A stretch of DNA of 64,000 nt from contig JAXMNT010000001.1 in the NCBI GenBank assembly GCA_034670305.1, positions 288,001 through 352,000 of the forward strand. The letters run 5' to 3'. Below, one piece after another: positions 11,111 to 37,284 of the stretch. The notes under the pieces were generated by a model. The model had not been told where the DNA came from and made no database searches. It worked only from the letters and a program-made list of their open reading frames with translations. Source of the DNA: Deltaproteobacteria bacterium. GTDB taxonomy: Bacteria; Myxococcota_A; Polyangia; Polyangiales; Houyiibacteriaceae. Position numbers and translations under genes: made by a program. Each line of letters starts with the position of its first letter. Position 1 is the first letter of the stretch.

Positions 11111-11845
11111 CTAGAAGCCGACGCGGCGCATGACGGCTCGGGGGAGGTGGCGGATGACCGTCATCACCAGCCTCCAGGGCGCGGGCGCGTAGACGACGGG
11201 GTCGCCGCGATCGATGGCGCCGAGCACCGTCTTGGCCACGTCGTCGGCTTCTCCGGCGAAGGGTGGCGGCTTCAGGCCCGCGGTCATCGGCGTCTTCACG
11301 AAGCCGGGTTTCACGGTCACGACCCGCAGTCCCTGCGAGCGGAACTTGTGGTCGAGGCCCTCGAGGTAGGCGGTCAACCCCGCTTTGCTCGCGCCGTAGA
11401 TGATCACGGGTTTGCGCCCGCGCTCGCCCGCGACGCTGCTGAATGCGCACAGGGTGCCGCCGCCATCTTCGAGGAGGCGAAGTCGCGCCGCTTCACAGAA
11501 GACCACGGTGTTCGTGAAGTTCACCCGCGTCAGTCGTTCCGCGAGCGCCGGGTCCGCTTCCAGCTCGTCCTGCGAGGCGAAGAGCCCCGCGGTGACCACG
11601 ACCGTGTCGACCTTGCCGAGCGACTCCCACGCGGCGTCGAGCGCGTCGGCGAATCCTTCGGGGGCTTCCAGATCGCAGCGGTGGTGCCCGACCAAGGGCG
11701 CGCCGCGCACCTCGAGATCCCGGGCGGTGTCGGCCAGCGTGGCGCTCGTGCGACCGAGCAAGAAGAGCGAGTCGCCGCGTGCGGCCATGCGACGCGCCAG
11801 CGCCTGTCCCATTCCACCCGTGGCACCCAAGAAGACGACGTTCAT
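11111..11845 (-). CDS. Short-chain dehydrogenase/reductase (DprE2-like subfamily)
   Basis: GATGGMG Rossmann motif, FSSVAGERG, YGASK, KPGFVKTPMT. Confidence 0.9.
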   Translation of the reverse strand: MNVVFLGATGGMGQALARRMAARGDSLFLLGRTSATLADTARDLEVRGAPLVGHHRCDLEAPEGFADALDAAWESLGKVDTVVVTAGLFASQDELEADPALAERLTRVNFTNTVVFCEAARLRLLEDGGGTLCAFSSVAGERGRKPVIIYGASKAGLTAYLEGLDHKFRSQGLRVVTVKPGFVKTPMTAGLKPPPFAGEADDVAKTVLGAIDRGDPVVYAPAPWRLVMTVIRHLPRAVMRRVGF

Positions 11846-23933: not shown

Positions 23934-24371
23934 CTACTCCTCGCGCCCGACCGACTTCAGGTACACCGCGTAGTCGGTGTCGCGCTCGACCGCGACGATC
24001 TCGACCACGCGCGCTCCCTGCTCGAGCCGAACGCCGCGCACGAGCTGGCGGTCGGGCGGGCTCCACCAGGCCAGCGGCTCTTCGGGCAACATCGGGTGGG
24101 TGTCGTAACCGCGCTCAAGCGCGCCGTCGGTCGTTCCGCACGACTCGAGCATGCCGGGCAGCTGCTCTTTCGGGATGACCGTCTTGGCGTGTACGACGAA
24201 CTGTTCGGCGTCGCCACCGATGTGGTCGTGGACGCGCACAGCACCGGACGGAACGTGGCACCCGGTGAACGCGAAGATGCGTGCGCGTGGGCCTCCGCTC
24301 GAGTCTTCACCGCCGCACGCACCAAAGAGCAGGGCACACGCGAGCAGGGCCCGCCGCACTCCCATGCTCAC
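23934..24371 (-). CDS. Hypothetical lipoprotein
   Basis: Lipobox FGAC; coupled to ACP stop. Confidence 0.6.
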   Translation of the reverse strand: MSMGVRRALLACALLFGACGGEDSSGGPRARIFAFTGCHVPSGAVRVHDHIGGDAEQFVVHAKTVIPKEQLPGMLESCGTTDGALERGYDTHPMLPEEPLAWWSPPDRQLVRGVRLEQGARVVEIVAVERDTDYAVYLKSVGREE

Positions 24372-24610
24372 TCGGCCGCTTGGGGCAGGCGCGCTTTCAC
24401 CTTCTCGTAGACCGCGTTCAGGTTGGTCAGCTCCTGAAGTTCTTCCTCGGGGATCGACAACTTGAACGTGCGCTCGACGTCCGCGACGATCTCGATCGCC
24501 ATCATGCTGTCGATGCCGAGGTCGGCGAATGGCGTCGCGTCGGGCACTTCGTCGATCTCCGCGACCTCCGCGATGATCTCCCGGAGCTGCTGTTTCAGTT
24601 CGTCAGACAT
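24368..24610 (-). CDS. Acyl carrier protein
   Basis: 80 aa, acidic, DLGIDSM phosphopantetheine site. Confidence 0.92.
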   Translation of the reverse strand: MSDELKQQLREIIAEVAEIDEVPDATPFADLGIDSMMAIEIVADVERTFKLSIPEEELQELTNLNAVYEKVKARLPQAAE

Positions 24611-24670
24611 TCGTTCCCATCCTCATTGGTTCCACGGCTCGTACGCCGGGGTTTCGATCGTGCGGACGCA

Positions 24671-26395
24671 TCACCCTGCGTCCAGTGTGGGGTCGGGGGC
24701 GTGCTCGGCGAGCGCGCCCGCTTCGAAGAGTTGTTTGGTCTTGCGCCGCTGGGCTTTGCCGCTGCTCGTCTTCGGCAGGGTACCCACGGGGCAGATCGCG
24801 ACATGGGCGGGAGAGAGACCGAAGTCCTGTTGCACCTTGCGGGCGATCTCGACCCGCAAGCGCTCGGCGTCGCCGCTCACCGCCTCGGCCGCCATGACCA
24901 GCTGCTCGGTTCCGTCCTTCATCACACTGAACGCGAACACGTTGCCTCGGCGCACGCCCTCGATGTCGGCCACGGACCATTCCAGGTCCTGAGGATAGTG
25001 GTTCGCGCCTCGAATGATGATGAGGTCTTTCACGCGTCCACAGATGAAGAGCTGCGGGCTCGGCGGCGCGTTGGGATCGCCGGCGTCGCTGGCGAAGTAG
25101 CCAAGGTCTCCGGTTTGAAGCCATCCCTCGCGCAGCGCCTCGGCCGTGGCATCGGCGGCTTCGAAGTAGCCCGGCGTGACACTGGGTCCGCGTGCGACGA
25201 CCTGCCCGACCCGGCGCTCCGGCAACGGCTTGCCCTCGGGGTCCACGACCTGCACGTCGTGGTCGGGGAACCCGCGGCCGCAGCCCATCACCTCGAGCGC
25301 GTCGTCCGCGTCGCTCGGACGCGCGACGCCATCTTGCATCGCTTTCGGATCCACCCGGTCGACCACCATCTCGGTGCCGTGCGGATGAAACGTGATCGCG
25401 AGCGTGGACTCCGCCATGCCGTAGCTCGGCAAGAACGCGTTCGAACGGAACCCAACCGGCGCGAACTTGGTCGCGAACTCTTGCAGTGTGCGGGCGCGGA
25501 TCGGTTCGGCGCCCGAACCGGCGACCCGGAGCGTGCTCAGATCCAGCGACGCGAGCTGCCGCTCTTTCACCCGCTTCGTCACGAGCTGGTACGCGAAGTT
25601 CGGTGCGTAGGTGATCGTGCCGCGGTGTTTGGTGATGGTCTCGAGCCAGAGCCCCGGGCTGCGCGCGAAGGTCTCGGTGGGCAGCACCACCACCGGGATG
25701 TCCATCACCAGCGTGCCGAGCACGAAGCCGATGAGGCCCATGTCGTGAAAGAGCGGCAACCAGGAGACGCCCTTGTCGTCGTCGTTTCGGTCCAGTCCGT
25801 GCGGCCCGAGGAACGCCGAGGCATTGGCGACCAGGTTGCCGTGCGTGACCATCACGCCTTTGGGTTTGGACGTGCTCCCGCTCGTGAACTGAAGAAAGCA
25901 GAGGTCGTCGGGCGTCAGCGCCGGGGCGGTGAACGAAGGCGCGGTGTCGTCGAAGACGGAGACGTCGCAGATCCGCGCGGTCGATCCGCGTTCGGCGATC
26001 CGCGCGACGACCTCGCGGTTGCTCGCCATGCAGAAGACGACCTTGGCCCCGCTCGTGCCGACGATGTGCGCGAGTGTGTCGACGTAGCCGTCCACGTTCT
26101 TGAAACTGGCGCGGGGGTAGATCGGGACCGGGACGACCCCCGCCACCGCGGCGCCGAGGAACGTGAGCACGAATTCGTGCGGCTCCGGAATCACGAGCGC
26201 GACCCGGTCGCCCTTCGAGAGACCGAGCCCCTGGAGGAAGGCCGCGCGCCGGTGGGCTTCGCGTTCGAGATCCCCGTACGCGAAGTACTGCTCTTCGCGT
26301 TTCGTGCTGACGAAGGTGAACCCGCGGCCTTCGCCCTGGCGAAGCGACCCCATCGCGGAAACCAAGGTTGCCTTCGGGTGGGTGCGCAACTCCAT
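24671..26395 (-). CDS. Fatty acyl-AMP ligase (FAAL)
   Basis: LQFTSGSTSKPKG, SWLPLFHDMGL, PNFAY, YGMAESTL, TGDLG, GRVKDLIIIRGANHYPQDLE, PKTSSGK. Confidence 0.93.
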   Translation of the reverse strand: MELRTHPKATLVSAMGSLRQGEGRGFTFVSTKREEQYFAYGDLEREAHRRAAFLQGLGLSKGDRVALVIPEPHEFVLTFLGAAVAGVVPVPIYPRASFKNVDGYVDTLAHIVGTSGAKVVFCMASNREVVARIAERGSTARICDVSVFDDTAPSFTAPALTPDDLCFLQFTSGSTSKPKGVMVTHGNLVANASAFLGPHGLDRNDDDKGVSWLPLFHDMGLIGFVLGTLVMDIPVVVLPTETFARSPGLWLETITKHRGTITYAPNFAYQLVTKRVKERQLASLDLSTLRVAGSGAEPIRARTLQEFATKFAPVGFRSNAFLPSYGMAESTLAITFHPHGTEMVVDRVDPKAMQDGVARPSDADDALEVMGCGRGFPDHDVQVVDPEGKPLPERRVGQVVARGPSVTPGYFEAADATAEALREGWLQTGDLGYFASDAGDPNAPPSPQLFICGRVKDLIIIRGANHYPQDLEWSVADIEGVRRGNVFAFSVMKDGTEQLVMAAEAVSGDAERLRVEIARKVQQDFGLSPAHVAICPVGTLPKTSSGKAQRRKTKQLFEAGALAEHAPDPTLDAG

Positions 26396-26780
26396 CTGGG
26401 CCGAAGTACGGCAGCGTCTGGATCGGGTCAAGCAAGTCCTGAGGCGGTCGCCCCGCGTCGGAATCCTGGTGGACAGCTGTTCGCCGATCGACCTGCGCGC
26501 CTTGCTTCGCGTGCGCCTGGGCGCTTCGCAAAACCGGCCGCCTGGCCGAGCCATTTCACGCACACCCGTCGCCCAACGGTCACATGTGGCAAGGCACGAA
26601 TGGGGCGTCTGCCGCGTTTTTTGGCTGGCTCGGCGATTGCTCTAGGTGCGGCGTGTTCGGAGGCTTCGCCTTCGTCTGCCAGGCCGCGGATCCCGAGTCG
26701 AAAAGCTGGCCGCGTGGCCTATTTTTGAATGATGTCGCTTAGTTGCGTGGGCCCGGCCGGAATTCTATAGGGAGACCGCA

Positions 26781-28079
26781 GTGAGTACGGAACAACAGAA
26801 AGGCGCGCAGCGCGTCTTCGTCACCGGCGTCGGTGTGGTCAGTCCCATCGGATTCGGTCGGGTCGAGTTCGGACGCGGTCTCGTCGCAGGCAAGAGCGGC
26901 GTCGCGCCGATCCAGCTCTTCGACACCCATGGTCTCGACCGAGACCTCGCGTGTGAGGTGAAGGACTTCCGCCCGCGCGATTTTCTGACCGCCGCTGAAG
27001 CTCGGCGCACCGGTCGCTGTTCGGCGATGGCCGTGGCCGCGGCCCGCATGGCGGTCGAAGACGCGGCCATCTCCGCGGCGGATCTCGGGGGACCTCGGAC
27101 CTCGGTGATCCTCGGCACCACGATGGGCGAAGCCAACGTGCTCGGCGAACTCGAGGCCGCTTGGATCCACGACGGCGAAGCGTCGGTGGAACAGAGCGCG
27201 CTGCCCCGCTACGGCACGACCCTCCTCCCCATCCACGTGGCGCGCGCGTTCGGTGCGCGCGGCATGGTGCAGACCCTCCCGGCGGCCTGCGCGGCGGGCA
27301 ACTACGCGATCGGGTACGCGACCGACCAGATCCGCGCCGGGCGAGCCGACGTGGTCCTCACCGGCGCGAGCGAAGTGATCGAGAAGCTCCAGTTCGCTGG
27401 CTTCTGCCGGCTCGGTGCGATCGCACCCGAGCTGTGTCGTCCCTTCGATCAGGGCCGGCAAGGGCTCATGTGCGGCGAAGGCGCCGCGATCCTCGTGCTG
27501 GAGAGCGAAGCCTCCGTGGTCCGCCGCGGCGCGACGGTGCTCGCGGAGATCGGTGGCTACGGGCTCGCCTGCGACGCGCACCACATCACGCGGCCGCACC
27601 CCGAAGGGTCGGGCAGCGCGCACGCGATGCGACGGGCGATCGCCACGAGCGGTTTGCGTCCAGACGACATCGACTACGTGAACGCGCACGGGACCGGCAC
27701 GTCCGCCAACGACAAGGTCGAAGCGAAGGTTCTGCGCGACGTGTTCGAGAACCGCCAACCCGCTGTGACCAGCGTCAAGAGCATGATCGGTCACTGCATG
27801 GGCGCCGCGAGCGCGATCGAAGCGGTGAGCTGTGTGCTCACGCTGCAAGACGGAGTGATCCCTCCGACGATGAACTACGTGACGCCCGACCCGGAATGCG
27901 AGGTCGACCTGGTCGCGAACCGTCCGCGTTCGGCCAAGGTGCGGATCGCGCTCAACAACGCGCTCGCGTTTGGCGGCTACGACGCGGTCGTGGCGTTCGC
28001 GCAGCCGGGCGTGTTGCCGCCCATCCCGGATCCCAGCCAGATCGACCCCGGTTTCGTTTCCGCACCCGCGGCGCTTTGA
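26781..28079 (+). CDS. Beta-ketoacyl-ACP synthase (FabF-like, catalytic)
   Basis: AACAAG Cys, NAHGTGT His, KSMIGH His. Confidence 0.93.
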   Translation: MSTEQQKGAQRVFVTGVGVVSPIGFGRVEFGRGLVAGKSGVAPIQLFDTHGLDRDLACEVKDFRPRDFLTAAEARRTGRCSAMAVAAARMAVEDAAISAADLGGPRTSVILGTTMGEANVLGELEAAWIHDGEASVEQSALPRYGTTLLPIHVARAFGARGMVQTLPAACAAGNYAIGYATDQIRAGRADVVLTGASEVIEKLQFAGFCRLGAIAPELCRPFDQGRQGLMCGEGAAILVLESEASVVRRGATVLAEIGGYGLACDAHHITRPHPEGSGSAHAMRRAIATSGLRPDDIDYVNAHGTGTSANDKVEAKVLRDVFENRQPAVTSVKSMIGHCMGAASAIEAVSCVLTLQDGVIPPTMNYVTPDPECEVDLVANRPRSAKVRIALNNALAFGGYDAVVAFAQPGVLPPIPDPSQIDPGFVSAPAAL

Positions 28080-29236
28080 TGCGTCTCGCGATCACTGGTC
28101 TCGGGGTGGTGAGCCCCTTCGGAGTGACGCGTTCGGCGTGGCAAGACGCGTTGAGCGGCTCGGACGATGCCGCGCGCGCGAACGCCTTCCGAGCGTCCGA
28201 AGTCGTCGAGGGCGCGCGGACCGCGGAGGTGTGGGGCTTCGATCCGAACGAAGTCCTCGGTCCGAAGGGCCACCGGAGTTTCGATCGGCTCACCAAGTAC
28301 TTGATCGCCGCCGCGAAACACGCGCTCGAAGACGCCGGCCTCAAACACGACGGGGCCTTCGTCGGCCCGCTCACCTCGGAGCAGCTCGGCATCTGCAGCG
28401 CGACCGCGTACGGATCGCTCGACGCGATCACCGAACTCAACCGCGTCGCGGAGCTCGAAGCGCCGCGGTACATCAACCCCGCGCGCTTCCCGAACACCGT
28501 CATCAACGCGGCCGCGGGCTACGTGAGCATCTGGGAGGATCTGCGCGCGCCCAACACCACCATCGTCGATGGCAACTGCGGTGCGCTCGATGCGGTGTTG
28601 ACCGCGGCGACCCACTTGCACCACCGGCGCGGCGACGGATTCTTGGTCGGCGGCGGAGAGGTCATCAGCGAACCCCTCTATCGAGCGCTCGCCAAACTCG
28701 GCGTGCTCTCGATGGACGGCAAGCCCGGCGTCGAGATGGGCGAGGGCGCGAGCTACGTCGTCGTCGAACGACCGGACCAAGCCGCGGCGCGCGGCGCCCG
28801 AGTGCTCGGTGAGTTCGTCGGGTACGGGACCGCGTTCGAACCGCCCGAGTCCGAAGCGCTGCTCGTGCACGCCTCGCAGGAATCCACCGAGCGCGCGGTT
28901 GGCCAAGCGCTCGCAGAAGCGGGCGTGGACGCGTCGGACGTCGACGTGGTGGTCGCGGCGCGCTGTGGGCTGGCGGAGATGGACCGCGCCGAAGACCAAG
29001 GCCTCAAGGCCGCGCTCGGCGAAGACGTCGCGGTGGTGGGCCTCAAGCGCGTGCATGGCGAGACGTTTGGCGCCGCGGGCGCGTTTGGGATCGCGGCGGC
29101 GCTCGCTTGGATGAACGGCGTTCCCGTCGGATCCTTGGTTCGTGGACGCGCGCCCCAAGAGGTGCGCCACGTGGTCATCTCGACCGTGGGTTTTTACGGC
29201 AACTGCAGTGCCGTCGTCTTGCGACGCGGGGGCTGA
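28079..29236 (+). CDS. Chain-length-factor-like non-catalytic ketosynthase subunit
   Basis: KS fold (AITGLGVVSP, PARFPNTVINAAAG, GEGA) but by manual alignment the catalytic Cys/His/His positions are N, A, E; TGATG coupling to KS. Confidence 0.8.
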   Translation: MRLAITGLGVVSPFGVTRSAWQDALSGSDDAARANAFRASEVVEGARTAEVWGFDPNEVLGPKGHRSFDRLTKYLIAAAKHALEDAGLKHDGAFVGPLTSEQLGICSATAYGSLDAITELNRVAELEAPRYINPARFPNTVINAAAGYVSIWEDLRAPNTTIVDGNCGALDAVLTAATHLHHRRGDGFLVGGGEVISEPLYRALAKLGVLSMDGKPGVEMGEGASYVVVERPDQAAARGARVLGEFVGYGTAFEPPESEALLVHASQESTERAVGQALAEAGVDASDVDVVVAARCGLAEMDRAEDQGLKAALGEDVAVVGLKRVHGETFGAAGAFGIAAALAWMNGVPVGSLVRGRAPQEVRHVVISTVGFYGNCSAVVLRRGG

Positions 29237-29276
29237 TCGACTTGCGATTGTTTCCGCAATCGGACAGAGGCGCGCG

Positions 29277-30539
29277 ATGACTTCGACGAAGATTCCGAAG
29301 GCGGAGAGCTGGGCGACGGCCAAAGCCCGCGTGGGGCTCGAGCGCATTCGGGAGGCCCAGGACAAGCAGGTCTACCCGTACTTCAAACAGTTCGAGTCCG
29401 GTGGTCTGCACAGCACGATCGACGGCAAACCGGTCCTGAACTTCAGCTCGAACGACTACCTCGGACTGACCACCCATCCAAAGGTCAAAGAAGCGTCGAT
29501 CGAAGCGGTGAAGAAGTTCAGCTGCGGCCTCAGTTCGTCGCGGGTCCAGGCGACGACCACCGCCCACGTCGAACTCGAGGAACGGCTGGCCGCGTGGTTC
29601 GGGTACGAGAGCTGTCTCGTCTTCACCACCGGCTACCAGGCGATGCTCGGCACGTTGATGTCGCTGGCCGACAAAGACACCACCATCATTCTCGACAACC
29701 TCGCGCACGCCTGCATTCTCGACGGCACGTTCCTCGCCGCCGGCGTGCCGCGCAACGGCTGCGAGATCCGATTCTTCAACCACAACAGTGCACGTTCGCT
29801 CCGCCGCTGTTTGAAGACGCGCGAGCGCAAGAACGCGCTCGTCTGCATCGAGGGCATCTACTCGCTCGATGGAGACGAAGCGAAGATCCTCGAGCTCGTC
29901 GAAGCGTGCGAAGAAGATCCAGGCGCGGTGCTCATCGTCGACGACGCGCACGGCACGGGCACCCTCGGCCAGGGCGGTCGGGGCATCCACGAGAAGTACG
30001 GCCTCGACGACACGCAGATCCCGATCGTGATCAGCACGTTCAGCAAGACCTTCGGCGGCATCGGCGGCATCTTGCTCGGCGACCGCGAAGTCGTGGACCA
30101 CGTCAAACACATGGCCCGCAGCTTTCTGTTCAGCGCCAGCTTGCCGGTGCCGGTCGTAGCGGCGGCGGCGACCATTTTGGACATGCTCGAAGACCACGGT
30201 GAAGAACTCGTCGCCGAGCTGCACGAGAAGGCGGCGTACATGCGCAAGTCGCTCTTGGAGATCGGTTTCGATCTCGGCATGAGCGACACCCACATCATGC
30301 CGGTGATGTGCAACGAGGAACGCAAAGCGCTCTTCACGCACGTGGCGATGCTCGAGAGCGGCGTGATGATGGTGCCGATCACGTACCCAGGCGTGAAACT
30401 CGGCGAAGAACGGCTGCGCTTGAACGTCACCCGCGGACACTCGCGCGAAGACATGGACCAAGCGCTCGAACTCCTGCAGATCTACGGCGAAGCGTTCTTC
30501 ATTCTGAGCGGCGACGAACTCGACCCCATGGAGAGTTGA
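29277..30539 (+). CDS. Alpha-oxoamine synthase (serine palmitoyltransferase-like, PLP)
   Basis: VYPYF, FSSNDYLGL, TTGYQA, HACILDG, DDAHG, TFSK (PLP Lys), RLRLNV. Confidence 0.88.
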   Translation: MTSTKIPKAESWATAKARVGLERIREAQDKQVYPYFKQFESGGLHSTIDGKPVLNFSSNDYLGLTTHPKVKEASIEAVKKFSCGLSSSRVQATTTAHVELEERLAAWFGYESCLVFTTGYQAMLGTLMSLADKDTTIILDNLAHACILDGTFLAAGVPRNGCEIRFFNHNSARSLRRCLKTRERKNALVCIEGIYSLDGDEAKILELVEACEEDPGAVLIVDDAHGTGTLGQGGRGIHEKYGLDDTQIPIVISTFSKTFGGIGGILLGDREVVDHVKHMARSFLFSASLPVPVVAAAATILDMLEDHGEELVAELHEKAAYMRKSLLEIGFDLGMSDTHIMPVMCNEERKALFTHVAMLESGVMMVPITYPGVKLGEERLRLNVTRGHSREDMDQALELLQIYGEAFFILSGDELDPMES

Positions 30540-30559
30540 GCCGAAGCAAAGCAGAGGCT

Positions 30560-30684
30560 CCCCTTGCCCTTGCCCGCGGTCCCCTTGCCCCTGCCCTTGC
30601 CCCTGCCCTTGCCCTCGGGTCGGAGTGAAGCCGACGCCGAAGCCGACGCCGAAGCCGAAGCCGAAGCCGAAGCCGAAGCCGAAG
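30560..30684. repeat. Composite hexamer array: (CCCTTG/CCCCTG)n + (GCCGAA/GCCGAC)n
   Basis: Two blocks shortly after the AOS stop codon. Confidence 0.9.
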
Positions 30685-30735
30685 GCCGGGCACAACGCGT
30701 TGCGGCCTGGGGCGCGTGGTACAGAATGCGTTTCC

Positions 30736-31287
30736 ATGAGCCACCCGTTTTCCGGAGCTACGTTTGAACGCGTCATCGCGATGCCCCGTGCAGAGCTCGA
30801 GCAGGTGATGCTCGAGGGAGCGACGCCGCAACGCGCGCATCTGGCCGGGTTCGAGTTTCGCGGCTTCAACCCGCCGGCGTTCGCGAAGGCGCTTGGGTTT
30901 CAGAAGTTCATCAAGGGCTTCTTCGTCGACGCGGGCGATCAGCTGGCCGGATACAACCTCTTCGTCCGCGACGCGCGCAAAGGCCCTTCGGCGCCATGGG
31001 TCGCGAAGAAGGATGGTGGCCCATCCACCCGGCATGGCTTCTACGACGTGGTGCCGGTCAAGTCGGGCGGGCGCTACAGCGACTTCCCGAACGCGGTGCT
31101 GCTGGACTACGGGAGCGGGCGCAACAAACCGCTCGATCCGGAAGGGCGCATCCGCGACTTCCTCGTGCAGGTGGATCCGGACAACCCGGACCTCTACCTC
31201 GGCAAGGCGTTTCTCGACCTCGGGCTGACCCGCGTGTTCGCCAACTTCTTCATCATCGAGCGGCTGCGCGAAGCACCGCCTGGCTAA
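30736..31287 (+). CDS. Hypothetical protein
   Basis: Typical codon usage; FQKFIKGFF, LLDYG, IRDFLVQVDP, LYLGKA. Confidence 0.7.
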   Translation: MSHPFSGATFERVIAMPRAELEQVMLEGATPQRAHLAGFEFRGFNPPAFAKALGFQKFIKGFFVDAGDQLAGYNLFVRDARKGPSAPWVAKKDGGPSTRHGFYDVVPVKSGGRYSDFPNAVLLDYGSGRNKPLDPEGRIRDFLVQVDPDNPDLYLGKAFLDLGLTRVFANFFIIERLREAPPG

Positions 31288-34634: not shown

Positions 34635-36392
34635 ATGCGTTCCCTGTTCCGCTACTGCCTTTCCTTCGCTCTTCTTGCGGGCTGCGTCGCCGATGCGGCG
34701 CCCGAAGAAGCGGGGTCCATCGTGCCGCTGGTCGACGGCGGGAGCCCGGAGGAAGCCGGCATCGTCGCGTTCCTCAACGATGCGGCGACCACGCAGGTCC
34801 TGCTCGACGACGACGTGGGGCTCGACCGCCGCGCGGCTTCGAACCTCATCCGCCGCCGCGACGACGCACCCTTCGAGAACATCGAGCAGGTGGACGCGGT
34901 CGCGTACGTCGGCCCGACCGCCCTGCAGAAGCTGCTCGACTGGGCCCGCAACGAAGGCTGGATCGAGACCGAGACGACCGACCGCGACGCGGCCATCCTC
35001 GCGCTCGTCAACGACGCCGACACCGATCTGGTGTTGCTCGACGACGACGTGGGGCTCGATGCCCGGGCGGCGCGGAACATCATCGACGCGCGTGCCGGCG
35101 CCGACCTGACCCTCGGCACCGCGGACGACGAGACCATCGCCAGCATCGCGGCGCTCGACGCGATCTCCTACGTCGGGCCAAGTGCGCTCGACAAACTCGC
35201 GACCTACGCGCTCGCGAACGGCTACGGCGAAGGGGAACCGCCGCCGCCCACCGGAACGGGCTGCGCGATCATCAGCGAGTACCTCGAGGGCTCCGGCAAC
35301 AACAACAAGGCCGTCGAGGTCTTCAACTGCGGCACCGACGCGCTCGATCTCTCGACCCTCTCGCTCTGCCTCGTGCGCAACGCGGACACCACCTGCGGCG
35401 CGACCAGCGCACTCGGCAGCGGCATGCTCGCGCCGGGGGCGGTGTGGACCGTCTGCCGCACCTTGGAGGGCACCCTCAACGATCCGTACACGTCGCTCAC
35501 CAACCGCTGCGACCAGCCGGTCGGCAGCGCGGTCTACTTCAACGGCGACGACCGCTTGGTGCTCTTCGACGACCTCGACACCGACGGCGCGCTCGGTGGT
35601 GAAGACACCGTCTACGACGTCTTCGGCGACACGATGGTGCGACCGAGCGACACGATCTGGGCGGAGCGCAGCCTGCGCCGATGCCGCCTCGAGCCGCACG
35701 CGGACGGTCCCTTCGACATGGACGACTACTTCACCCAGCACGGCTCGAGCGACTCGACCCACTTCGGTCTGCCGCCGAACGACGACTGCGGCGAGCGGCA
35801 CGTCGGCGCGGAAGGCGACGACTGCCTCGCGCACGAGGGCTGCGCCGAAGGACTGCGCTGCTACGGCCGGCCGAACGACGGTTCGACGCCGTACGGCAAG
35901 TGCATCGACACCACGCCCATTCCGGGCGAAGGCGCGACGTGCGACCAGTACACCCCGTGCGCCGAGGGACTCATCTGCGCTGGCTGGACGCTCTGGGGCG
36001 AAGGCAACTGCAACCCCGGCTGGATGGCGGGCCGGTACCGCTCCGAAGGTCCGGCGCCGATCCACGATCCGCCCTCCGGTGGCATCGCCCCGTCGGTGAC
36101 GGTCTACGGACTCGCGTCGGTGCCCGTCGACATCGAGGTGATGCTGCACATCGACCACCCGCGGCCGCAGGATCTGCGTGTGACGCTCTTGGATCCTTCG
36201 GGGACCGACGCGGTGCTCTGGGACCAGACGACCGAGCTCGAGGAGTGGAGCCGCAGCTTCGTCACGACGGGCAACATCTCCCGCGACGACGAGGTCAATG
36301 GACGTTGGCACCTGCGCATCGAAGACCTGGTCGCGGGTCAGACCGGCGTCTGGCACGAGTGGTCGCTCTTCGTCGTCTCGCGCTGGGACTGA
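34635..36392 (+). CDS. Multidomain lipoprotein: two HhH-like repeats, lamin-tail domain, Cys-rich region, proprotein-convertase P-domain
   Basis: Lipobox LAGC; duplicated LLDDDVGLD.RAA.NI/L...D.V/I.YVGP.AL.KL; IISEYLEGSGNNNKAVEVFN; HPRPQDLRVTL..NGRWHLRIED. Confidence 0.8.
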   Translation: MRSLFRYCLSFALLAGCVADAAPEEAGSIVPLVDGGSPEEAGIVAFLNDAATTQVLLDDDVGLDRRAASNLIRRRDDAPFENIEQVDAVAYVGPTALQKLLDWARNEGWIETETTDRDAAILALVNDADTDLVLLDDDVGLDARAARNIIDARAGADLTLGTADDETIASIAALDAISYVGPSALDKLATYALANGYGEGEPPPPTGTGCAIISEYLEGSGNNNKAVEVFNCGTDALDLSTLSLCLVRNADTTCGATSALGSGMLAPGAVWTVCRTLEGTLNDPYTSLTNRCDQPVGSAVYFNGDDRLVLFDDLDTDGALGGEDTVYDVFGDTMVRPSDTIWAERSLRRCRLEPHADGPFDMDDYFTQHGSSDSTHFGLPPNDDCGERHVGAEGDDCLAHEGCAEGLRCYGRPNDGSTPYGKCIDTTPIPGEGATCDQYTPCAEGLICAGWTLWGEGNCNPGWMAGRYRSEGPAPIHDPPSGGIAPSVTVYGLASVPVDIEVMLHIDHPRPQDLRVTLLDPSGTDAVLWDQTTELEEWSRSFVTTGNISRDDEVNGRWHLRIEDLVAGQTGVWHEWSLFVVSRWD

Positions 36393-36414
36393 TGCGGAGC
36401 GAGGCAACCGTTCG

Positions 36415-37284
36415 ATGAGGTACGAAGGCCGCATCTACCGTCCGCCCTCGGAGGCGGACGCGTTCATCCTCCAGGCGACGATCGGGTGCAGCCACAACCT
36501 CTGCACCTACTGCGACATGTACCGGGCGAAGTCGTTCCGGGTGCGCGACCTGCAAGAGACCTTGGCCGACATCGACGCGGTCGCGGCGGAGGTCGGGGAC
36601 CGGGTCGAGAAGGTCTTCGTCGCGGACGGGGACGCGCTCGTACTTCCGATGGACCACTGGGTCCCCATCCTCGAGCGCTGCCGCACGTCGTTCCCGCGCC
36701 TGCGCCGGGTGAGCTGCTACGCGATGGCCCGCAACGTCGCCGGCAAGACCGACGCTGAGCTCTCGCAGCTCCGGCAGCTCGGGCTCACCACGCTCTACAT
36801 CGGTCCGGAGAGCGGCGACGACCGGACCCTGAAACGCATCGTGAAGGGCGACACCTTCGACGGTCACGTGGAAGCAGCGCGCCGGGCCCACGAGGCGGGT
36901 TTGAAGCTCAGTGTGATCGCCCTGCTCGGCATCGGCATGGACCGCTCCGACGAACACGCGCGCGCGACCGCGAAGCTGGTCACCGAGATGGACCCGGCGT
37001 ACTTCGCCGCGTTGACGGTCACTGTGGTCCCGGGCACGCCGCTCGCGAAGTTGAGCCAGAAGGGCCGCTTCGAAGTGCCCCCGATCGAAGGCCTGCTCGG
37101 CGAGCTGCGGACCATGGTCGATCTGGCCCGCCCGACGGACGCGATCTTCCGAACCAACCACGCCAGCAACTACCTCCCGCTCGGCGGCCGGCTCCCTCGC
37201 GACCGGGCGCGCATCGTCGAAGTCATCGACGCGGCCCTCGCCGGCACCATCCCGCTGAGACCCGAACGCCACCGCGGGTTGTAG
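36415..37284 (+). CDS. Radical SAM protein
   Basis: YRPPSEA..GCSHNLCTYC (CxxxCxxC), GPESG, FRTNHASNY. Confidence 0.92.
   Translation: MRYEGRIYRPPSEADAFILQATIGCSHNLCTYCDMYRAKSFRVRDLQETLADIDAVAAEVGDRVEKVFVADGDALVLPMDHWVPILERCRTSFPRLRRVSCYAMARNVAGKTDAELSQLRQLGLTTLYIGPESGDDRTLKRIVKGDTFDGHVEAARRAHEAGLKLSVIALLGIGMDRSDEHARATAKLVTEMDPAYFAALTVTVVPGTPLAKLSQKGRFEVPPIEGLLGELRTMVDLARPTDAIFRTNHASNYLPLGGRLPRDRARIVEVIDAALAGTIPLRPERHRGL

Follow-up and report, generated by a model that had tools for sequence, protein, structure and literature searches.

A fatty acyl-AMP ligase, ketosynthase-pair, and α-oxoamine synthase cluster in Polyangiales: a probable long-chain-base synthase module in place of canonical serine palmitoyltransferase

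Layout and constancy of the cluster

The gene cluster considered here lies at 23.9 to 31.3 kb of a 64,000-nucleotide stretch of DNA (the window), namely, positions 288,001 to 352,000 of contig JAXMNT010000001.1 in the Deltaproteobacteria assembly GCA_034670305.1 (order Polyangiales, family Houyiibacteriaceae). The G+C content of the window is 65 to 72%, and the genome to which it belongs (the window genome) comprises 7.9 Mb in 105 contigs and is 96% complete. On the minus strand, the cluster has genes for a fatty acyl-AMP ligase (FAAL), an acyl carrier protein (ACP), plus a lipoprotein-like protein, and on the plus strand, it has genes for a catalytic ketosynthase (KS), a KS-like partner (KS2), an α-oxoamine synthase (AOS), and a hypothetical protein (Table 1). 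These genes had been named in an earlier reading of the same DNA (the original prediction), and every one of them is present, in the order and on the strands first listed.

The divergent spacer between the FAAL and KS operons is presumed to be a shared promoter region. A scan of third codon positions (GC3) found a coding signal in all cluster genes except the lipoprotein-like gene and the KS-like gene, the stop-to-stop frame scanned for the latter being longer than the gene itself. As originally remarked, there is no reductase or dehydratase between 23.9 and 31.3 kb; the nearest short-chain dehydrogenase/reductase (SDR) gene is at 11111-11845. Housekeeping genes flank the cluster and encode S-adenosylmethionine (SAM) synthetase, SAM decarboxylase, a Mrp/NUBPL-type ATPase, NadB, a cyclophilin, CysRS, and YidC.

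Table 1. Features of the cluster, with positions counted from the first nucleotide of the window
Feature	Position	Strand	Description
Lipoprotein-like open reading frame (ORF)	23934-24371	-	145 aa, lipobox LFGAC; no Pfam or NCBIfam family
ACP	24368-24610	-	80 aa, DSM serine motif; PP-binding, 60.8 bits
FAAL / acyl-ACP synthetase (AasR-like)	24671-26395	-	574 aa from the Met of MELRTHPK; AMP-binding, 241.5 bits
Divergent intergenic spacer, FAAL versus KS operons	26396-26780		385 bp
Catalytic KS, FabF-like	26781-28079	+	432 aa; both ketoacyl-synt domains (Pfam)
KS-like partner (KS2)	28079-29236	+	ATG overlaps the KS stop codon (TGATG)
Divergent AOS	29277-30539	+	Aminotran_1_2 (PF00155), 163.5 bits versus cutoff of 19.7; start taken at a Met 45 codons inside the ORF
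Hypothetical protein	30736-31287 (ORF may begin at 30625 with a PKPT repeat)	+	183-aa core; no Pfam or NCBIfam match

The core of this arrangement is constant among relatives. In 80 loci retrieved by way of the KS-like gene, the AOS gene is directly 3′ of KS2 in 57 of the 67 with at least 2.8 kb of flank (it is farther off or inverted in 5 and absent from the locus in 5), and the KS gene is directly 5′ of KS2 in 55 of 69, frequencies that place the arrangement beyond chance. The 57 loci with at least 5.5 kb upstream include 41 that encode the ACP, 32 a second ACP, 31 the FAAL, and 20 a hotdog (4HBT) thioesterase, the last having no close orthologue in the window genome (25 to 36% identity). 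The set AOS-KS2-KS / FAAL-ACP2-ACP, with the thioesterase as an optional addition, is intact even in genomes of 1.8 and 2.9 Mb (loci L126 and L127). The ACP is the most constant neighbor of the AOS: in one genus of the window's own family (g2, 18 genomes), which lacks the KS pair (e.g., L123 to L125 and L025), an AOS 70 to 72% identical to that of the window is divergently paired with an ACP alone. One sublineage (L016 to L019, L145, L147, L154, L162, L183, L190, and L196) has a glutathione S-transferase-like gene after the thioesterase and an outer membrane β-barrel-like gene between KS2 and AOS.

The co-conservation expected of all the genes therefore holds for this core and fails for the two outermost members. 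Homologues of the lipoprotein-like gene adjoin the cluster just in close relatives (L004, L005, L009, L010, and L013) and in 4 of 80 KS2 loci, and those of the hypothetical gene do so just in L005, L009, and L010 and in 1 of 80; we regard the membership of both in the system as doubtful.

The FAAL and the ACP both score below NCBIfam cutoffs. The best NCBIfam model for the FAAL is NF006624, "fatty acyl-AMP ligase" (504.5 bits against a cutoff of 600), and Pfam assigns it a DIP2-like C-terminal domain beside the AMP-binding domain; it is 35 to 38% identical to the FAAL-like genes within spt/cerR/bcerS loci of the alphaproteobacterial type, and the window genome contains no closer paralogue of it (next best, 24 to 28% identity). 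The ACP scores 38 bits on housekeeping ACP models, whose cutoffs are 70 to 71.

The α-oxoamine synthase and the ketosynthase pair

By its Pfam domain and catalytic residues, the AOS belongs to the α-oxoamine synthase superfamily of fold-type I pyridoxal phosphate (PLP) enzymes. The PLP lysine, the stacking histidine, the Asp/His pair, and the carboxylate-binding arginine are all kept, and the segments HACILDG, DDAHGTG, STFSKTF, and RLRLNV align to the catalytic positions of serine palmitoyltransferase (SPT), Kbl, and BioF. Both of the motifs to which attention was first drawn, VYPYF and the atypical SSSRVQATT, are present and conserved. The best match in the Protein Data Bank (PDB) is the SPT of Sphingobacterium multivorum (239.6 bits), followed by a Thermus BioF/Kbl enzyme (211.5) and the cysteate acyltransferase 28eh (198.7).

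The window genome contains three AOS genes in total. One encodes the glycine C-acetyltransferase Kbl (654.8 bits against 493) beside Tdh (586.9 against 380), and another is BioF-best (391.1 bits against a cutoff of 426), with a neighbor that has no NCBIfam match at an E value of ≤1e-40 and for which a BioD call rests on a P-loop reading. With Kbl and a BioF-best enzyme accounting for the other two genes, the cluster AOS is the only candidate long-chain-base synthase of the genome, and since both of those functions have genes elsewhere, it is itself neither Kbl nor BioF; on the Kbl models, its scores are below the cutoffs (TIGR01822, 238.4 against 493; NF005394, 274.8 against 460).

For the AOS phylogeny, we combined the best 150 representatives from a search of 1.84 billion proteins with domains of fusion proteins, synteny-supported SPTs, and the Kbl and BioF of the window genome. 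The rows of the resulting trees are the query's own best matches, labeled by NCBIfam scores and synteny, and include no biochemically characterized sequence and neither ALAS nor CqsA. In a quick tree of 110 rows, the window clade is a single branch of 12 rows (SH-aLRT of 99), or of 16 rows when four near relatives are counted (again 99), and the 16-row clade is inside a 59-row group (95) from which BioF and Kbl are absent and in which every synteny-supported SPT of either type is placed. A more careful tree of 66 rows recovers the AOS clade with support of 100/99 and separates it from BioF and Kbl at 94/96, with the AOS on the SPT side; the grouping with BioF and Kbl that the original prediction had named as its counterevidence is thus not what the trees recover.

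Some relatives of the AOS are fused to other domains. A metagenomic protein of 744 aa (P0222), 50% identical to the AOS, is a natural fusion of an AOS of the window's clade and a short-chain dehydrogenase, the form to be expected of a keto-base synthase joined to its reductase. Its SDR domain gives generic SDR matches, with TSC10 ketosphinganine reductase in the top five and tied with FabG-type rows, and because of this tie, the domain is not diagnostic. Genome contigs yielded just 28 to 36% matches to P0222 and no close relative, and the neighborhoods of the cluster loci contained no SDR matching its SDR domain. A PilZ domain occurs in many SPT-like AOS proteins (among P0236, P0248, P0249, P0257, P0272, and P0337), some of which are also fused to FemAB-like or GNAT domains; the PilZ fusions hint at control of long-chain-base synthesis by cyclic di-GMP. 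SPT-like genes of Polyangiaceae (loci L033 and L034) have N-terminal extensions of about 130 to 200 aa, that of L034 without a Pfam match.

The two ketosynthase-type proteins differ in their active sites. The Cys-His-His triad of KS is invariant in 13 of 13 orthologues; the protein scores 395.5 bits on the FabF/KAS II model TIGR03150, below its cutoff of 493.75, and is only 37% identical to the housekeeping-type paralogue on contig C11. In KS2, the catalytic His pair is replaced in 16 of 16 sequences (the first position is variable and the second is Glu), and with both His residues lost, KS2 is predicted to be unable to decarboxylate malonyl-ACP. Its AlphaFold2 (AF2) model has a thiolase fold (pLDDT of 86.0), and its matches in the ESM Atlas are just generic ketosynthase clusters. 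The active-site Cys of KS2 is kept in 14 of 15 sequences, the other (L128) having Pro. Aromatic chain length factors (CLFs) have Gln at this position, and by this residue, KS2 differs from a classical Gln-type CLF. The proposal that the second ketosynthase is a noncatalytic, CLF-like partner consequently stands as regards the lost His pair and the TGATG coupling and needs amending as regards the retained Cys.

The closest solved relatives of the two proteins are chains of one structure: chain B of 9s5h for KS (404.8 bits, where FabF structures reach ≤296) and chain C for KS2 (127.7 bits), the latter with Thr at the Cys site and the same Glu. As chains B and C of 9s5h/9s5i are the best matches of both proteins, a homologous KS/KS-like heterodimer has already been solved, and by analogy, we propose that KS and KS2 form a heterodimer. 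These chains, by far the closest structure to KS and KS2, are labeled "3-oxoacyl-ACP synthases"; a literature search found no paper on 9s5h/9s5i, and the structure is a sign that a homologous pair is under study by others.

Distribution, proposed function, and alternatives

In the genomes sampled, the AOS is confined to, and widespread in, the order of the window. Among the first 120 matches of a large protein search, AOS homologues are 74 to 100% identical, those with names being assigned to Myxococcota, Polyangiaceae, or Sandaracinus under generic protein names. In a 301-genome sample of the phylum, orthologues (64 to 88% identity, E ≤ 7e-168) occur in 36 genomes besides the window genome, all of the same order: 17 of 17 genomes of the window's family and 19 of the 31 others of the order. 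In the remaining 12, the best AOS match is just 36 to 39% identical, and these genes are SPT-like, with 437 to 568 bits on the model NF047600, compared with 299 for the cluster AOS.

The SPT-like genes adjoin genes for a 376-aa protein without a Pfam family and for an epimerase-family protein, giving the order spt-bcerS-cerR. In a scan with an alignment of the 376-aa family, the best 80 loci of 579 relatives include 17 with an AOS and 28 with an epimerase-family gene in the flanks. Loci of Polyangiaceae have the order AOS, 376-aa gene, epimerase, and loci of Alphaproteobacteria and Desulfobulbaceae (L097, L101, L103, L107, and L115) have the order FAAL-like gene, epimerase, AOS, 376-aa gene. 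These loci match a spt/bcerS/cerR (+aasR) pattern described in PMC11087976 and PMC9386255, and we therefore read the 376-aa protein as bCerS-like. The window genome has one copy (46 to 53% identity) on another contig, unlinked to the cluster (C24:26383-27513), and three metagenome-assembled genomes (MAGs) with the cluster likewise carry it on another contig (L004/L065, L013/L069, and L014/L090). The 20 loci closest to the copy of the window genome (58 to 75%) have neither an AOS nor an epimerase neighbor. Over the order, the bCerS-like family is present in 46 of 48 sampled genomes in addition to the window genome and in 34 of the 36 with the cluster AOS (the exceptions are G110 and G280).

A larger sample of the order (151 genomes) contains KS2 in 105 genomes, one of which (G384) is flagged as unpublished, and an SPT-like AOS in 18, and the two sets are disjoint. 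From this exclusivity and the persistence of the bCerS-like gene, we conclude that the variant system and canonical SPT substitute for one another and that the enzyme acting after them in ceramide synthesis is retained. LpxC was detected in just 27 of the 151 genomes, so that most of the order appears to be without lipid A synthesis; it is present in 12 of 105 KS2-positive genomes versus 13 of 18 with an SPT-like AOS and in 0 of 18 of the ACP+AOS genus. In the window genome, neither LpxC nor LpxB was found by searches whose controls responded. Sphingolipids stand in for lipopolysaccharide (LPS) in Sorangium cellulosum, which reportedly lacks LPS and has an outer membrane of unusual lipid composition.

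The cluster is probably the long-chain-base (sphingoid-base) synthase module of this lineage, a noncanonical replacement of SPT that feeds bCerS for the synthesis of membrane sphingolipids. This proposal builds on which genes are present, on their catalytic residues and conservation, and on two patterns across genomes, namely, mutual exclusion with the SPT-like gene and joint occurrence with the bCerS-like one. It is also favored by the absence of any other candidate synthase in the genome, the place of the AOS on the SPT side of the trees, the fusion P0222, retention in genomes of 1.8 to 2.9 Mb, the housekeeping surroundings, the scarcity of LpxC, and the precedents of AasR/AcpR/SPT and of PKS-derived sphinganines discussed below. 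From these we infer each chemical step, including the amino acid, the contribution made by the KS pair, and the reductase, as follows. The FAAL would adenylate a fatty acid and load it onto the dedicated ACP (a second ACP being available in the cluster of most relatives). KS, as a heterodimer with the nondecarboxylating KS2, would condense the acyl-ACP with malonyl-ACP and so extend the chain or define its length; elongation of this kind, for one round or more, is a tentative element that we put at somewhat below an even chance. The AOS would then carry out a decarboxylative condensation of the acyl-ACP thioester with an amino acid, most likely L-serine (a substrate that we favor with modest confidence), to yield a 3-keto long-chain base. 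This base would be N-acylated by the unlinked bCerS-like acyltransferase and reduced to ceramide-type lipids, which are probably structural lipids of the outer membrane in these mostly LpxC-less bacteria. FAAL/ACP loading with off-loading by the AOS toward a sphingoid-type lipid had been anticipated by the original prediction, and this part fits the evidence assembled here.

Several observations weigh against this proposal. The AOS is below the cutoffs of all SPT models (NF047600, 298.9 against 640; NF047599, 275.3 against 500; NF047603, 210.6 against 670), its highest NCBIfam score is on bioF (TIGR00858, 322.5 bits against a cutoff of 426.45), and the Kbl paralogue of the same genome outscores it on the SPT-CFB model NF047600 (314.8 versus 298.1). 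In the careful tree, the node joining the AOS clade to the SPT group has support of 19/0 and the AOS is outside the SPT clades; judged from this phylogeny, the AOS is a separate lineage beside the SPTs, not inside them. In 14 of 69 loci, where the linkage of KS2 to the AOS outlasts that to KS, KS does not adjoin KS2, and the three genomes examined for this have orthologous KS (67 to 70%) and FAAL (64 to 65%) genes elsewhere. In genus g2, the KS-like gene occurs in 0 of 18 genomes at an E value of ≤1e-50, and the FAAL-like gene is just 35 to 39% identical; as this genus keeps ACP and AOS without the KS pair, the pair is not obligatory. The smallest unit is thus ACP plus AOS, to which the KS pair is often, though not always, added; in that genus, the KS pair and the FAAL are both dispensable. 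Dedicated elongation, as first proposed, is a putative step. No clear CerR orthologue was found in the window genome, where the best epimerase-family candidates are 33 to 37% identical (the best is at C23:17154-18131), and the assignment of the 376-aa protein as bCerS draws on synteny and a weak GNAT match (22.4 bits). Finally, the literature that we searched, which included few subscription papers, yielded no lipid data for these organisms.

The substrate loop of the AOS raises the alternative that the architecture is as proposed and the amino acid is glycine, alanine, or cysteate, giving a 1-deoxy-, sulfono-, or headgroup-modified base that is still N-acylated to a membrane lipid. The loop CGL[SG]SSR-xQAT, one residue shorter than the GSRxxNGT of SPT, occurs in 12 of 12 orthologues and also in the near relatives P0220, P0222, and P0223, and every one of the aligned synteny-supported SPTs has GSRxxNG[TS]. 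In a solved cysteate enzyme, the equivalent residues (Gly81/Ala82 of the neighboring protomer) shape the side-chain pocket, according to PMC13692747. With the loop of the amino acid pocket both remodeled and shortened, serine is not assured as the substrate, a further point against the proposal as stated; the separation of the AOS clade from all SPT clades and the appearance of 28eh among the top PDB matches agree with a different amino acid. Set against these are the best PDB match, which is a serine enzyme, the one-for-one exchange with the SPT-like gene where the bCerS-like gene persists, and the retention of the catalytic His, Asp, His, and Lys and of the carboxylate-binding Arg, and on balance, we consider a nonserine substrate unlikely. 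A bolder version, which we rate as similarly improbable, has the KS pair hand the AOS a chain-extended acyl-ACP (maybe β-keto or desaturated) while the loop selects an amino acid other than serine, so that the outer membrane of most LpxC-less Polyangiales lineages would be built from an undescribed polyketide-like sphingoid base.

That the cluster belongs to a pathway for a specialized metabolite or signal unrelated to membrane sphingolipids (an autoinducer of the α-hydroxyketone type, an alkyl-pyrrole or alkaloid precursor, or an amino-polyketide) has some appeal from its composition: FAAL, ACP, KS/KS-like, and AOS genes make a natural-product-like set with no reductase, the hotdog thioesterase is optional (20 of 57 loci), and many of the nearest AOS representatives are fused to FAAL-ACP, polyketide synthase (PKS), luciferase-like, or thioesterase domains. 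Its distribution speaks for a core function, as the AOS is 64 to 88% identical among relatives and the system is found in all 17 genomes sampled from the family and in 105 of the 151 from the order, is retained in genomes of 1.8 to 2.9 Mb, is embedded among housekeeping genes, and is exclusive with the SPT-like AOS; moreover, the AOS scores 165.4 bits on the autoinducer-synthase model, whose cutoff is 428. We accordingly think a specialized metabolite quite improbable and, where the original prediction saw an unusual or alkaloid-like lipid, favor a core, clade-wide membrane-lipid pathway over a secondary-metabolite cluster. The last alternative, a housekeeping enzyme of the BioF or Kbl type whose adjoining fatty-acid genes are unrelated, can point to the top score on bioF and to the RLR before the conserved Arg (as in BioF and Kbl), and it has a negligible chance, such an identity being contradicted by the model cutoffs, the bona fide Kbl-Tdh pair and BioF-best gene elsewhere in the genome, and the 94/96 split in the tree, to which the tight KS2-AOS and ACP-AOS linkage can be added.

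Neighboring features and relation to known systems

The second ACP of the window genome is encoded away from the cluster, on contig C9, 10 bp upstream of a gene of the acyl-ACP desaturase family. This locus (C9:119328-124281; L222) has a second-ACP orthologue 61% identical to that of L016 and the desaturase-family neighbor (PF03405, 71.9 bits), with an ERG4/ERG24-family reductase (230.5 bits) and a CMAS-type methyltransferase (172 bits) nearby on the opposite strand. The same desaturase family is found inside the cluster in L146, L191, and L200, and the C9 locus may form a branch of this pathway in which the chain is modified.

For the hypothetical protein, 99 homologous clusters were found, every one of them unnamed. 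Its AF2 model (pLDDT of 96.6) is a closed β-barrel, for which Foldseek gave no match at an E value of ≤0.001; the best structural match by VIA-align is 4mve (Z score of 11.3, root mean square deviation of 3.0, 136 aligned residues), a protein of unknown function, followed by lipocalin-like rows that are ordinary barrels. A lipid-binding role is possible on the basis of this model.

Just 3′ of the AOS gene, at 30560-30700, are short-period G+C-rich repeats that read PKPTPKPKPKP and GFGFGLG on opposite strands, and similar repeats are near the BioF and bCerS-like genes of the same genome (L003:333-1242 and L040:5976-9533). Such repeats inflate ORF predictions, for example, at the 5′ end of the hypothetical gene. 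A radical-SAM gene at 36298-37284, 5.8 kb 3′ of the AOS gene, has a 65% identical homologue that adjoins the AOS gene in one MAG locus (L023; 6891-7763), a neighborhood not seen in the loci other than L023.

The literature searched yielded no account of this AOS clade or of a discrete KS/KS-like pair taking part in long-chain-base synthesis, no system combining FAAL, AOS, KS, and ACP, no paper treating a KS heterodimer, a FAAL, an aminotransferase, and a lipid together, and no combination of "chain length factor" with "oxoamine synthase"; Sandaracinus and sphingolipids were mentioned together just in an unrelated amplicon survey, and a review of FAALs (PMC11837247) is silent on both sphingolipids and PLP enzymes. 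At present, homology to Spt, bCerS, and CerR is the basis for predicting which bacteria produce sphingolipids. If the proposed function is true, a large radiation of soil, freshwater, and marine myxobacteria (among those sampled, 105 of the 151 genomes of the order and also the genus that has just ACP and AOS) relies for its long-chain base on an enzyme below the SPT model cutoffs and on a ketosynthase pair undescribed for this step, and such organisms would be missed by Spt-homology surveys or misannotated as having a member of the "BioF/Kbl family." The cluster would also supply a defined gene set for asking what replaces LPS in LpxC-less diderms, and its FAAL, ACPs, KS pair, and AOS are a compact set of discrete enzymes for making amino-alcohol lipids.

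The cluster resembles four known systems to differing extents. The tripartite AasR/AcpR/SPT system of Alpha-, Beta-, and Gammaproteobacteria (CC_1165, CC_1163, and CC_1162 of Caulobacter), as described in PMC9386255, likewise places an AMP-binding acyl-ACP synthetase and a specialized ACP beside a long-chain-base AOS whose product goes to bCerS and CerR. In our cluster, however, the AOS is of another, unnamed clade with a remodeled substrate loop, a KS and KS-like pair is added between loading and off-loading, most relatives have a second ACP and some have a hotdog thioesterase, and in the window genome, bCerS is unlinked and a clear CerR was not found. In the route to PKS-derived sphinganines of Pseudomonas fluorescens MYb115, the iterative type I PKS SgaA acts with SgaB, an AOS with SPT activity (PMC12134224); there too, ketosynthase chemistry on a carrier protein builds or extends the chain, a separate AOS releases it, and canonical SPT is bypassed. 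The cluster differs in having discrete, type II-like proteins with no multidomain PKS and no ketoreductase (KR), dehydratase (DH), enoylreductase (ER), or acyltransferase (AT), in taking its starter from a FAAL, and in belonging to a pathway that is core and clade-wide rather than accessory.

Canonical SPT (NF047600; the S. multivorum SPT structures 3a2b/8guh) is the best solved relative of the AOS, shares its PLP-binding and catalytic residues, and fills the same genomic slot in sister lineages. Yet the cluster AOS shares just 36 to 39% identity with the canonical SPT-like enzymes found in sister lineages of the order, scores 299 bits where 640 is the cutoff, has SSSR-VQATT in place of GSRFLNGT, and is without the N-terminal extension of about 160 aa found in the Polyangiaceae enzymes. 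KS/CLF heterodimers of type II PKS-like systems (actinorhodin, 1tqy; ishigamide Iga11/12, 6kxd) and the heterodimer 9s5h/9s5i similarly join a catalytic KS to a homologue in which the His-His pair is missing, and the translationally coupled KS and KS2 come closest to 9s5h, whose chain C has, like KS2, the invariant Glu in place of the second His; in contrast, KS2 keeps the Cys in 14 of 15 sequences (chain C has Thr), no KR, DH, or cyclase accompanies the pair, and off-loading would be by an AOS. If our reading is true, the cluster adds a third route by which sphingoid bases are made, the other two being SPT, whether free-standing or ACP-dependent, and a type I PKS with an AOS.

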